Shown: positions 51,413-57,564 of the stretch, in pieces
How positions within the stretch are numbered: the first letter of the stretch is position 1
Layout: each line of letters starts with the position of its first letter
From: an uncultured Clostridia bacterium
GTDB taxonomy: Bacteria > Bacillota > Clostridia > UMGS1883 > UMGS1540
Length of the DNA stretch: 64,000 nucleotides
Reading direction: 5' to 3'
Assembly (NCBI GenBank): GCA_937966555.1
Contig: CALCLY010000022.1
Span: forward strand, 212,729-276,728
The notes under the pieces: model-generated
What the model was told of the DNA's origin: nothing
Seen by the model: the letters and a program-made list of their open reading frames with translations, nothing else
Databases searched by the model: none
Translations under genes and position numbers: made by a program

Positions 51413-53824
51413 TCACTCCTTATACTCTAAAAATTTTTTTAATTTCGGTTCATTGCCTTCTTTTGTCCAAATCATTACAACAAGCTTATATCTTTGCGCG
51501 TCACCGGGAACCTCAACCACGCCTTCCTCCGTTCCGGCAACGCTTAAATCAAGTGTTTTTGTTTTTACGCTCACTATTCTTTCGGTTTCCCTGTCTATAA
51601 GCGCCGTGTAAATTACTCCTTCTGTATTTCTCTCCTTTTTGCGGTACCGCAGGGCATATACCGATGAAGCTCCGTTTTTTGTTACGGTCACCTCGACCGT
51701 ACCCGGAAACACTTCGGGCTTTGTGATTTTTATGCTTCCTTCGCCCGACGCGCTCACGCTGTGATATGAATCGGCTTCGATTTCATAAATATGCCTGTCC
51801 GGCGAAAAACCATCAAGCGCCAAGCCGTTTAATTTGATTTGCGAAAGCTTCGGTTTTTCGGTGAAATCCGCGTTTTGTGAAACGCTCCACTCCGACAGAG
51901 GAACATAAACGGGCGCCGCCAACTCATGTAGGTATCTTTCCGGTGTAAACGCAACACATATTTCCGTGTCCTTTACGTTTTCGAGATGCATTGCAAGCTT
52001 TCTGTAGCCGGTATTGGGGTTCTGCCCTTCGCAGACGGGCGATGAAGGCAGCGGTGCGGCGTCCATGACTTCAAACGTGCCGCCGCGCACAATTTCGGCT
52101 TTCAGCCTGTTGTCTCCCATACTCAGAAGCGCGCTTTTCCCGTCCTCCGATATCAGCGCCTGCGCCTCGGTGTGCATAAACCAATAAATTTCATTTTCCT
52201 CCGTGCTTTTTATTTCATCTGTGACCACCACTCTCCTTCTGCCGTCCGTAAGCATTATTCCGCGCTTTGCACTTTGTACGTAATCCTCATACGCACAGGT
52301 TGTATCGGTTATCGCAAACGCCTCGGAATATCCCGATTCGAACCTGTCTATATACGCATGAGCGTTCTCTGCCTGATCATACATTCTGCCGTCGGGATTA
52401 AATACCAGAACGTTGTGTCCCTCCGCTCTGTTTCTGTATTTGTTGAAAAACTTTCCCGGAAGGTTATAGTTTTCGTACCCGAGATCGGCGGCAAACCTGT
52501 CTCCCATAGAGTCTATGACAAATTCGCCTATGTCAAGATGGCCGTGAGCCGCCTTGTTGTTTCCCGCATGAAGTCCGCAAAAAAGCATTTCGTCCGTATT
52601 CCATGAGCTTCTCATTGTGACGGCGTCGGCGTTGTCATACTTTGCGTCCCGCCGCATAAACGCCTCGCCGCCGTTCGGATTTCCTTTGAAATAGAACAGC
52701 TCGCGGTAATTGGGCTCAATATTTTCTTTTTCCATCATATTATATCTGAAGCTTTTCAGATACGGCTGCGAAAACCTTTCCGCAAACCAGAAAAACTCTT
52801 TTGTATCTATTTTTTTCAGGGGCGATTGTCCCGCGTCGGAAAAATTGAACGTGTAAACCCCCGTCATTTCAACCGGATACAGCCCTGCCTTTGAGAAGCC
52901 CTCTATATCGGAAAGACCGTAATCCGTCCCCGCTGCCGTATTAAGGCTTTCAATACACTCAACAGCGGTTTCTGTGGCAAGCTGCCAATAGGCAACACCC
53001 TCATACCACGCCCCGTCGGGTCCGTATTCCTTAACGCCGCGCGCAAAGCTTCTTATTCCTTCGCAAAGCACCCTGTTTGTGTATCCGCTCTCGTCCTCAT
53101 CACATATGGCAAGCGATGCCATAATCGCTCCGCTGCCGCATTCAAGAGTCCAGTTGTCCGCTTTTCCGAACGCCCACGTATAAACGCGCGATTTACCGTC
53201 GTTTCCGACAGCCACGCCGTCATATACATCGCACGTCGGCTTTAAGCCCTTATCGCAGAGCGCCTCGCGCATACTCCTTCTCTGCACGGGAGTAAGATAA
53301 TCGTAAAGCCAGTCATAGCCCAAAGCCATGCCGTTCATAAACTGCCCCGTGTCAAGAAAATGATAAGGATTCCAGCTGCTCCACGATAAAAGCGCTTCAA
53401 TCTCTCTCCATGCTCTGTCGGCAAATGAGGTTTCTCCCGTTATTTTATAAATAAGTGCGTTTTGCGAAACGATTTTTGCAAACTGCCCCGACTGCACTCT
53501 CATTCTTATGCCGTCTGTCGTTCCGTACACAATAGGCTCTCTTTTTGAATATCGTATCGTATCCGCTTTTATTTCTCTGAACCAGTTTCCCTTAATGCCG
53601 CCCGCATCTATTTCGTCACGCAATGCCTCAAAGCCATCCGCGTCTGCAAAAAGCCTCGGATGACCGTTAGCCGGGTGAAGCCGCTTCACATCCGATACAA
53701 CCTGACCGCAGGCAAGCGAATCATATTGCCCCGTATCGGAGGCGCGCGCTGCCGTGCTTATCATAAGCGCAAGCGGCAATATTAAGCTTAAAATTTTTCT
53801 CCGCAACGCGGACACCTCCGTCAC
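51413..53824 (-). CDS. Secreted heparinase II/III-like polysaccharide lyase (N-terminal alginate-lyase-like alpha/alpha toroid plus Hepar_II_III beta-sandwich).
   Basis: [47 protein letters not shown] is the heparinase II/III signature. [13 protein letters not shown] sits in the toroid domain. GTG start overlaps the upstream stop (GTGA). Signal-like N-terminus [21 protein letters not shown]. Confidence 0.75.
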   Translation of the reverse strand: [803 protein letters not shown]

Positions 53825-56800: not shown

Positions 56801-57564
56801 TTTGAGCCCATTACCATACTGACAATCTCATCACTTACCGAGTTTCCCGAAACGGATATATTCCAGTCGGTTTCGTTCATCTGCACGGGAGACAGCGGCT
56901 CGCTCCCCTCATAAACTTTCATATCGCTTATGTAAAATTCGGTTTTGCAGTTTTTCTGTATTCCCGTTACATGTATGCGAAACTGAGTCATGTCCGTAAG
57001 CATATTCTCCAACGAGATATCCGCGGCTCTCAGTTTGTAATTTACAAAAATCGAATATGTCTTCTTATCAAAATCCATAGCTATTGAAATTGTTGAAAAC
57101 TTTCCCTCCGGAAGCTGATAACCTATAGACGCAGTGTTTATATCAAGAATATTACCTTCAGTATCTATCCTGATAAGACCTTGTGATGTTCCGGCAGAAT
57201 CATACACATAGAAAATTTTGCTTGATCCTGCATTGAAATCCGGTCTTACGGTAGCTTGCCAGACAACTTTTCCGCTCATAGCATTGTCAAACTTTTTGTG
57301 CATTAAACAGTCGTTTGAAGTTTTAATCTGAAACAATACACTCTTGTCAGAAGCCCTCGGCACCTCAACAACACCCATAAAATTACCCTTGTCGTTATAA
57401 CTTGTTATGCTTGACGAGCCGGGCATGAATCCGTTGTCCACCGCATCAAATGTCTCGCCGTAATACCACTTGGGCTGTGATGCGGCAACAATGTTTTTAG
57501 GAAACACCGACAATGCCAGCGAGGCCGCCAATGCAACTGTGAAAAATCTTTTTATAAGTTTCAT
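53821..57564 (-). CDS. Large secreted heparinase II/III-like polysaccharide lyase carrying an N-terminal LamG-like domain, a copper-amine-oxidase-like stalk domain and a C-terminal F5/8 type C (discoidin) domain.
   Basis: Signal peptide [21 protein letters not shown]. The lyase core is paralogous to 51413..53824 ([47 protein letters not shown]). Stalk repeat [18 protein letters not shown]. The C-terminal discoidin-like block reads DTRYSCE...YVRITGTG. Confidence 0.8.
   Translation of the reverse strand: [1247 protein letters not shown]

Follow-up and report, generated by a model that had tools for sequence, protein, structure and literature searches.

The 64-kb window considered in this study (64,000 nucleotides of contig CALCLY010000022.1, assembly GCA_937966555.1) comes from an uncultured, spore-forming, gut-type Clostridia lineage and carries a tandem pair of genes, here called g1 and g2, which lie with the other genes of their operon on the minus (-) strand. 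We assign both products to the polysaccharide lyase family PL35 and consider it likely, with a probability of roughly 80%, that they are anciently diverged, secreted lyases heading an operon for extracellular glycan breakdown. The upstream gene g1 (53821..57564) starts with an ATG preceded by a Shine-Dalgarno (SD) duplex of -10.0 kcal/mol and encodes a multi-modular protein of 1247 amino acids (aa); several public assemblies hold a protein identical to it. The downstream gene g2 (51413..53806) encodes 797 aa when read from TTG 53806, its most likely start, and the mechanical open reading frame (ORF), which opens at the first in-frame GTG (51413..53824), gives 803 aa. A Sec-type signal peptide is read at both N-termini, and both proteins are predicted to be secreted. 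In BLASTP, residues 401-1097 of g1 align to residues 33-727 of g2 with 51% identity over 704 aa (E = 0). The catalytic cores are colinear, 55% identical and equipped with the same active-site residues, and the block HGHLDIG(Q/E)FVIDS is found in both. An earlier reading of the bare letters, hereafter the original prediction, had proposed tandem heparinase II/III-type lyase paralogs with differing accessory modules, and this is borne out by the ORFs, the 51% identity and the Pfam matches.

The family assignment is based on three kinds of search. In Pfam, both proteins match Hepar_II_III_C (PF07940; 39.4 bits for g1 and 36.2 for g2, gathering cutoff 24) and DUF4962 (PF16332; 36.6 and 33.5 bits, cutoff 28.7), which carries the name DSE-like_N in newer Pfam releases. 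The phmmer searches against PDB returned, over the full catalytic length of g2, the structures 8KHV (9.4e-52), 8KHW (9.8e-51) and 9O3Q (1.8e-39), with PL15 (Atu3025) as the next-best family at only 2.7e-9; the same three entries lead for g1 (8KHW 1.2e-54, 8KHV 7.6e-54, 9O3Q 3.5e-46), followed by PL33 (1.5e-7) and PL21 heparinase II (1.6e-6). The NCBIfam model HepB reaches 39.6 bits against a cutoff of 600. In the third search, a full-length AlphaFold2 model of g2 (pLDDT 86.8) shows helices across residues 33-372 and beta strands across 388-622, and its top three Foldseek matches are again 8KHV, 8KHW and 9O3Q (target-normalised TM-score 0.80-0.84, identity 22-24%), with PL15, PL33, PL17, PL39, PL21, dermatan sulfate epimerase (DSE) and PL12 following in that order. 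The PL35 catalytic module of g2 spans aa ~36-640 (51887..53701) and that of g1 aa ~410-1010 (54535..56337), the latter being predicted to form the same helical toroid followed by an antiparallel beta-sandwich by virtue of its 55% core identity to g2. Taken together, these matches place g1 and g2 in CAZy family PL35 rather than PL12, PL15, PL17 or PL21, in as much as the PDB homologs are labelled PL35 by their depositors and papers. The profile, PDB-sequence and fold searches agree on a lyase family. Thus the lyase superfamily of the original prediction stands and the families it listed (PL12, PL15, PL17, PL21) give way to PL35; likewise its "alginate-lyase-like toroid" is a helical toroid in the AlphaFold model and in Foldseek, with DUF4962/DSE-like_N and not Alginate_lyase as the matching Pfam model.

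The active site can be read from GAGase II, in which mutagenesis identified the catalytic triad Asn192, Tyr246 and His401 and the Mn2+ ligands His403, Asp405, Asp421 and His457 (PMC12088678). After mapping these residues with the offset of 22 between the numbering of the 8KHV chain and that of the paper, all seven are kept in both window proteins. The proposed catalytic residues are Asn586, Tyr640 and His788 in g1 and Asn218, Tyr273 and His421 in g2. The proposed metal ligands, with the identity of the metal taken over from GAGase II by homology, are His790, Asp792, Asp808 and His831 in g1 and His423, Asp425, Asp441 and His464 in g2. By the same homology, an acidic glycan with a beta-1,4-linked uronic acid would bind in the cleft between the (alpha/alpha) toroid and the beta-sandwich, where Asn586 (g1) or Asn218 (g2) would neutralise the uronate carboxylate. 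The pairs His788/Tyr640 and His421/Tyr273 would serve as base and acid of a beta-elimination that creates a new non-reducing end with a 4,5-unsaturated uronate, and the His/Asp/Asp/His site would hold a structural Mn2+. One further position differs: the second carboxylate-binding residue of GAGase II, Asn191, is replaced by Asp in both g1 and g2 (motif DNW; Asp217 in g2). Asp occupies it in 21 of 40 aligned homologs. Among PL35 enzymes, GAGase II and VII have Asn there, the alginate-active GAGase III has His and BcPL35 has Thr. In these alignments it therefore appears as a variable position of PL35 rather than a family-defining one, and it may tune specificity.

Outside the cores the two proteins differ considerably. 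The N-terminal module of g1 (aa ~30-225; 56890..57477) is a ConA-like/LamG-type beta jelly roll and a putative carbohydrate-binding module. Its match to Pfam Laminin_G_3 is sub-threshold (E 0.054, 14.1 bits against a cutoff of 27.6), and an AlphaFold2 model of aa 28-410, built from 36 homologs, reaches pLDDT 90 and finds in Foldseek the Hc fragments of botulinum and tetanus neurotoxins (BoNT/TeNT), NTNHA and the BT_1020 sialidase (E 1e-9 to 6e-11). The clostridial neurotoxin Hc fragment includes a lectin-like jelly roll. The "LamG-like" domain proposed for the upstream copy is hence correct at the level of fold and not as membership of Laminin_G_3. The proposed copper-amine-oxidase-like and discoidin domains were found as described, both in g1 only. 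The first is a copper amine oxidase N-terminal-like (CuAO-N-like) domain at aa 280-371 (56452..56727; Cu_amine_oxidN1, PF07833, 71.1 bits, cutoff 24.2). The second is an F5/8 type C (discoidin, CBM32-type) domain at aa 1120-1221 (53902..54207; F5_F8_type_C, PF00754, 40 bits, cutoff 28.2), which matches the CBM32 of AlyQ (PDB 7D29) at 4.1e-16 as well as further CBM32 domains. Such modules had been described as added to the upstream copy; they are indeed distinct to g1, but not simply added, for the copies have an Ig-like domain in common and g2 has a C-terminal domain of its own. The Ig-like beta-sandwich linker of g1 lies at aa ~1020-1097 (54274..54507), is common to g2 as judged from the reach of the BLASTP alignment to g1 residue 1097 and from the g2 model, and corresponds to residues 654-723 of g2. 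In the AlphaFold2 model the remainder of the g2 C-terminus (aa ~654-797 in all; 51416..51847) forms a small beta domain at residues 730-797, modelled at low confidence, whose motif VPGD..Y...V.IW resembles the C-termini of the product of the next gene, g3, and of second-paralog proteins of other loci. Neither the Ig-like domain of g1 and g2 nor the C-terminal domain of g2 has a Pfam match. We propose that the jelly roll, CuAO-N-like, Ig-like and CBM32-type modules would target g1 to its substrate or to a surface, and that g2 would act as a stripped-down paralog with the Ig-like and small C-terminal domains. The original prediction went further and suggested an endo/exo or substrate-variant specialisation of the two copies; their sequences show no feature that would tell an endo-acting enzyme from an exo-acting one.

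The pair belongs to a broad family. A large protein search returned 773 homologs of g2 at E <= 1e-10. Dozens of clusters have the architecture of g1 (CuAO-N, DSE-like_N, Hepar_II_III_C and F5/8; hereafter A-type) at ~1240-1260 aa and 32-51% identity, and where named they are proteins of "Clostridia bacterium" metagenome-assembled genomes (MAGs). Many others are single-module proteins of ~611-635 aa from Verrucomicrobiota, Fervidibacter and Bacteroidota, and the g2 type forms one cluster only among the search matches. Neighbor-joining (NJ) trees (200 bootstraps) place g1 with its orthologs P0004-P0006 (also P0002) and leave g2 outside in 99.5% of replicates, and g2 is sister to this group in 61%. 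At positions where g1 and g2 have identical residues, the third codon position agrees at a fraction of 0.46 over all of them and of 0.58 in the 90%-identical HGHLD…EGHN block. The duplication, as judged from these saturated synonymous sites, is old. Recent duplication or gene conversion between the two was rejected on the same figures and on the 99.5% grouping of g1 with its orthologs, and the low third-position identity within the block indicates that it stays alike because its metal- and catalytic-site residues are under purifying selection, rather than through gene conversion. An orthology of g2 with the second paralog of the related locus L001 is unsupported (6.5% bootstrap), and the small C-terminal motif that they share leaves some ambiguity. 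Base composition adds a further hint on history: GC content at third codon positions (GC3) is 0.53 in g2 and g3, against 0.44 in g1 and 0.35-0.47 in the window's other genes, and the last ~70 codons of g2 look native (GC3 0.36). The g2-g3 block (48636..53806) may accordingly have a separate, possibly lateral, history.

Downstream, g1 and g2 appear to head a putative operon of ~21 kb. A sigma-70-like promoter candidate (TTGATT-17-TAAAAT; 57643..57671, by consensus scan only) lies upstream of g1, just behind a terminator-like hairpin that follows pyk (57796..57760), and the consensus scan found no convincing internal terminator in the operon. Both genes would be transcribed from this promoter, with g2 initiating at TTG 53806 on its own strong SD. 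The junction gaps are 14, 5, 38, 10, -4 and 2 nucleotides (nt), and ~25 nt before the FG-GAP gene if an internal ATG is used. The third gene, g3 (48636..51407), encodes a 923-aa predicted secreted protein with a polysaccharide-deacetylase-like C-terminal domain, DUF2334, at a sub-threshold 23.7 bits against a cutoff of 26. Its mechanical GTG at 51416 overlaps the stop of g2, and its likely start is ATG 51407, behind AGGAG and 5 nt past that stop. The rest of the putative operon (36691..48597) comprises, by Pfam and by its junctions, genes for proteins of 470, 1110 and 879 aa, a 926-aa FG-GAP protein and a GH20 hexosaminidase-like protein. The 470-aa protein (47185..48597) and the 1110-aa protein (43842..47174), the latter with three C-terminal SLH domains, are both conserved beside PL35 genes in close strains. 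The 470-aa protein is of no recognised family and gave nothing in searches of Pfam (E up to 5), NCBIfam and PDB sequences. The same searches returned nothing beyond SLH domains for the 1110-aa protein, including its ~900-aa N-terminal body, and for the 879-aa protein, and nothing beyond FG-GAP repeats for the 926-aa protein. The SLH region of the 879-aa protein (41206..43845) is cryptic and N-terminal: the protein itself has no Pfam match, and a profile of 16 family members matches the S-layer SLH domains of Sap in PDB at residues ~30-185 (E 8.5e-18). Members of its rare family fall into 18 clusters, every one of them from uncultured Clostridia or Oscillospiraceae, and its ATG overlaps the stop of the upstream SLH gene as ATGA (43845..43842). 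As a whole, the deacetylase-like, two SLH-anchored, FG-GAP and GH20 proteins would fit the extracellular degradation of a hexosamine/uronate polymer in association with the cell surface.

Loci of the same layout are present in other uncultured Clostridia. A scan of species-representative genomes found two related loci only. Locus L001, from a Clostridia MAG, has an A-type gene (1258 aa) followed by a 1324-aa second paralog and a 1274-aa homolog of g3 that passes both the DUF2334 and the Polysacc_deac_1 thresholds. In L004 the order is an AraC regulator, a 1369-aa DSE-like protein, the A-type protein, a 916-aa protein, Polysacc_deac, a 1131-aa protein and an 879-aa protein, and in L005 it is an AraC regulator, an FG-GAP protein, the A-type protein, a 1065-aa paralog, a 568-aa protein, an SLH protein and a ~864-aa protein.

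The leading guess for the substrate, by analogy with characterised members, is an un- or lightly sulfated glycosaminoglycan (GAG) of the chondroitin, hyaluronan or heparosan type, and among the candidates we regard it as the most likely one, because chondroitin, hyaluronan and heparan sulfate are substrates of the characterised PL35 enzymes (PMC11262172, PMC12088678, PMC12269599, PMC6442616). Amino-sugar genes in or near the operon provide a second lead, namely GH20, a NanA/DapA-family aldolase, YhcH, GlcNAc 2-epimerase and GH3. Several points weigh against a pair of GAG-degrading lyases at the head of such an operon. Identity to the characterised PL35 enzymes is just 22-24% in structural alignment, and the Clostridial PL35-like members are uncharacterised. 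With Asp beside the neutralising Asn, the chemistry of the +1 subsite may differ. No sulfatase, no GH88/GH105 unsaturated uronyl hydrolase and no KduI/KduD is encoded in the 64-kb window, and no transporter within the operon; the GAG reading is circumstantial on this account. The boundaries of the operon are drawn from consensus scans only, and two SLH proteins together with a CuAO-N-like domain would likewise be compatible with a function directed at the envelope polymers of the cell itself.

A serious alternative, though on balance an unlikely one, is that the fold and the PL35-type beta-elimination hold and the natural substrate is an acetylated bacterial or algal uronic-acid polymer rather than a host GAG. 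Candidates could be a capsule or exopolysaccharide (EPS), teichuronic acid or a secondary cell-wall polymer, alginate, gellan or glucuronan, with the deacetylase-like protein stripping acetyl groups before or after cleavage. Such a substrate would suit the Asp that most Clostridial members have in place of the second carboxylate-binding Asn, the window's lack of sulfatase and GH88, the two SLH-anchored proteins encoded in the operon, and the placement of a DUF2334/Polysacc_deac-like gene behind the PL35 genes of related loci (immediately behind in L001, one gene later in L004). GAGase III, a characterised PL35 enzyme, also cuts alginate (PMC12088678), and among solved structures the CBM32 of the alginate lyase AlyQ comes closest to the discoidin domain of g1. 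Against this, every characterised PL35 enzyme acts on chondroitin, hyaluronan or heparan sulfate, and GH20, the NanA-family aldolase with YhcH and the GlcNAc 2-epimerase nearby suggest host-type amino-sugar foraging. Moreover, related loci come from gut metagenomes (e.g., the Hadza MAG of L002), and the AraC regulators beside L004 and L005 suggest inducible catabolism and not envelope remodelling.

A further view, which we find doubtful, is that the multi-modular PL35-like proteins of Clostridia constitute a subfamily of their own, new in specificity, and are not classical GAG lyases. The ConA-like/CuAO-N-like/PL35/Ig-like/CBM32 architecture, the Asp substitution and the conserved neighbourhood of a second paralog, DUF2334, SLH and FG-GAP proteins might mark such a subfamily. 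They might then make up a Gram-positive cell-surface machine, comparable to a polysaccharide utilisation locus (PUL), for an acetylated or partly de-N-acetylated hexosamine-uronate polymer, for which bacterial capsule or EPS, teichuronic-acid-like wall polymers and heparosan-type chains might be candidates.

The start of g2 bears on how the pair is translated. The original prediction had g2 start at a GTG that overlaps the stop of g1, thereby coupling the two by a GTGA string. The string is present (53821..53824, the TGA stop of g1 overlapped by the in-frame GTG), but the start is probably unused. With the 16S 3' end, the SD/anti-SD duplex energy is -3.1 kcal/mol for GTG 53824, -5.4 for GTG 53815 and -14.3 for TTG 53806, the last owing to a GGAGG at 53815..53819 that lies 8 nt before the TTG within the 14-nt g1-g2 spacer. 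TTG 53806 also gives a clean canonical Sec signal peptide, and the public gene calls for the g2 protein are of 797 aa (TTG) or 783 aa (an internal ATG), never of 803. From the stronger SD, the signal peptide and the public calls, we place the start most probably at TTG 53806, 14 nt past the g1 stop. The internal ATG was rejected, as codon 15 of g2, ATG in some strains, reads ATA in strain L003, and a start there would cost the protein its signal peptide. Translation from GTG 53824 with a -4 overlap and an 803-aa product is quite improbable in our estimate. Re-initiation by a ribosome that has just terminated can do without a strong SD when start and stop overlap, the GTGA is invariant in 5 strains, and a true ATGA overlap exists elsewhere in the same operon (43845..43842). 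However, the SD duplex of this GTG contrasts with that of the TTG at its ideal 8-nt spacing, the six extra residues MTEVSA would put an acidic residue ahead of the canonical n-region MRRK, and this start is absent from the public gene calls. That GTGA does not vary carries no information, since the string falls within the g1 stop and g2 SD region, and the whole g1-g2 junction, GGAGG included, is invariant in those strains. Coupling of g1 and g2 by proximity is plausible, and the overlapping-GTG mechanism is probably wrong.

It is very improbable that g1 or g2, or both, are no lyases and instead DSE-type uronate C5-epimerases or fold-keeping non-catalytic binding proteins, since every catalytic and metal residue is kept in both copies, their similarity to proven PL35 lyases stands ~50 orders of magnitude above that to DSE, and their predicted secretion suits depolymerisation of an external substrate, although newer Pfam calls the N-terminal family DSE-like_N, Foldseek lists human DSE with E 3e-19, a sequence search also picks it up weakly (E 0.0034), and the L001 clade, with Gln or Asn for the general-base His in both paralogs, indicates that loss or change of lyase chemistry does occur.

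Variation of this site within the L001 lineage (L001 482..9117) is an observation in its own right. Most members of both tandem PL35-like paralog clades there are devoid of the general-base His and have Gln, Asn or Ala instead, as seen in the sampled A-type proteins P0012 and P0019 and in the sampled second-type proteins P0008, P0009, P0015, P0017 and P0018, with the triplet forms Q-G-H, N-G-D, N-G-Q and A-G-Q; the A-type proteins P0014 and P0016 retain the His, and the comparison also spans P0020. The altered paralogs retain Tyr, Asn and most metal ligands, and from their sequences they could be pseudo-enzymes or carry an altered chemistry. The chemistry is thus not uniform in this branch of PL35, and the window copies are intact.

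A second observation concerns the copy number of g3, compared between the window and L003 (12400..17887), L006, L007, L009 and L010. In three related assemblies g2 and the 923-aa g3 are separated by an additional DUF2334 gene of 898 aa, which begins with ~1.57 kb near-identical to the start of g3. This gene is absent from the window and from two independent assemblies (JGI 3300029857, ERR3450997). The polymorphism is consistent with deletion or duplication via recombination between the repeated 5' parts; an assembly artefact is an unlikely cause of the single copy, as the same arrangement is present in independent JGI and Logan assemblies.

Beyond the operon, the segment 35246..36654 (minus strand) opens with a promoter-like site close to the consensus (TTGACT-17-TATAAT; 36654..36626), behind which come genes for a DapA/NanA-superfamily aldolase and a YhcH/YjgK/YiaL-family protein. 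The aldolase scores under every equivalog cutoff, and together the two may represent a module for sialic acid or a keto-deoxy sugar that is attached to the glycan operon. A second cluster of amino-sugar and cell-wall flavour lies at 2034..16437 of the window and encodes a 778-aa Cu_amine_oxidN1 protein, GH3, a LacI regulator, PGA_cap, beta-lactamase-like, HAD hydrolase and DUF4838 proteins, a DUF11 protein of raised GC (0.485), GlcNAc 2-epimerase and a 463-aa protein without an assigned family. Adjoining an AraC-type regulator is a gene whose product joins a cysteine peptidase of the papain family (C1) to a lectin-like domain (17408..19051, plus strand). The window also encodes SpoVT, SMC and FtsY, and its gene content points to a spore-forming member of the Clostridia with an appetite for amino sugars.

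We regard g1 and g2 as real but ordinary, that is, as multi-modular Gram-positive members of a known lyase family in an old tandem pair, and the outcome is a refinement of annotation (PL35 family, corrected g2 start, operon context) rather than a surprise. The data show the family, the fold, the conserved catalytic residues, the gene order and the synteny, from which lyase activity, substrate, localisation, start codon and operon boundaries are inferred. Nevertheless, PL35 was defined recently, its characterised members are all single-domain and Gram-negative (Bacteroidota, Victivallis), and some of them are unusually broad in GAG specificity and of interest as tools. The locus reveals a widespread, uncharacterised Gram-positive branch of the family with large targeting modules and conserved accessory genes. 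If active on host GAGs, these enzymes would point to specific genes by which uncultured gut Clostridia may forage on GAGs, a process far less understood than in Bacteroides, and if the specificity differs, the substrate range of PL35 would be extended.

Among known systems, GAGase II (Spirosoma fluviale, 8KHV) and GAGase VII (Bacteroides intestinalis, 8KHW) are the best matches over the whole module (E 1e-51 to 1e-54, target-normalised TM-score 0.84). They share with g1 and g2 the DUF4962 plus Hepar_II_III_C core, the Asn/Tyr/His triad, the His/Asp/Asp/His Mn2+ site and secretion, predicted in the case of the window proteins. They differ in that identity is only ~24%, that Asn191 of GAGase II is Asp in g1 and g2, and that the GAGases are single-module Gram-negative proteins of ~625 aa, to which g1 adds ConA-like, CuAO-N-like, Ig-like and CBM32 modules and g2 the Ig-like and C-terminal domains. 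The setting also differs, being a Bacteroidota PUL for the GAGases and a Gram-positive operon with SLH proteins for the window pair. The PL15, PL17 and PL39 alginate lyases, the PL33 hyaluronan/gellan lyases, PL21 heparinase II and PL12 heparinase III have the same superfold, the Tyr/His chemistry and Hepar_II_III_C, with weaker sequence similarity to g1 and g2 (E 1e-9 to 1e-5, against 1e-52 for PL35) and a lower Foldseek rank. With regard to domain architecture, Gram-positive multi-modular surface carbohydrate-active enzymes (CAZymes), such as the mucin- and GAG-degrading ones of Clostridium perfringens, combine a catalytic core with CBM32 and Ig-like modules that target host glycans. Unlike g1 with its PL35 core, those CBM32-bearing enzymes are mostly glycoside hydrolases or PL8 lyases. 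We know of no characterised PL35 core in an architecture of the g1 type, and a search of one literature library found no paper linking PL35 with Clostridia. The BcPL35 chondroitinase of Bacteroides caccae PUL25 (9O3Q) belongs to the same family as g1 and g2 (E 1e-39 to 1e-46, target-normalised TM-score 0.80), has Thr where they have Asp at the Asn191-equivalent position, and works in its PUL with GH88, sulfatase and GH154, none of which is in the window. Both BcPL35 and the founding PL35 enzyme from Victivallis vadensis are endo-acting, have an open groove and prefer unsulfated chondroitin, a preference that fits the sulfatase-free locus described here.

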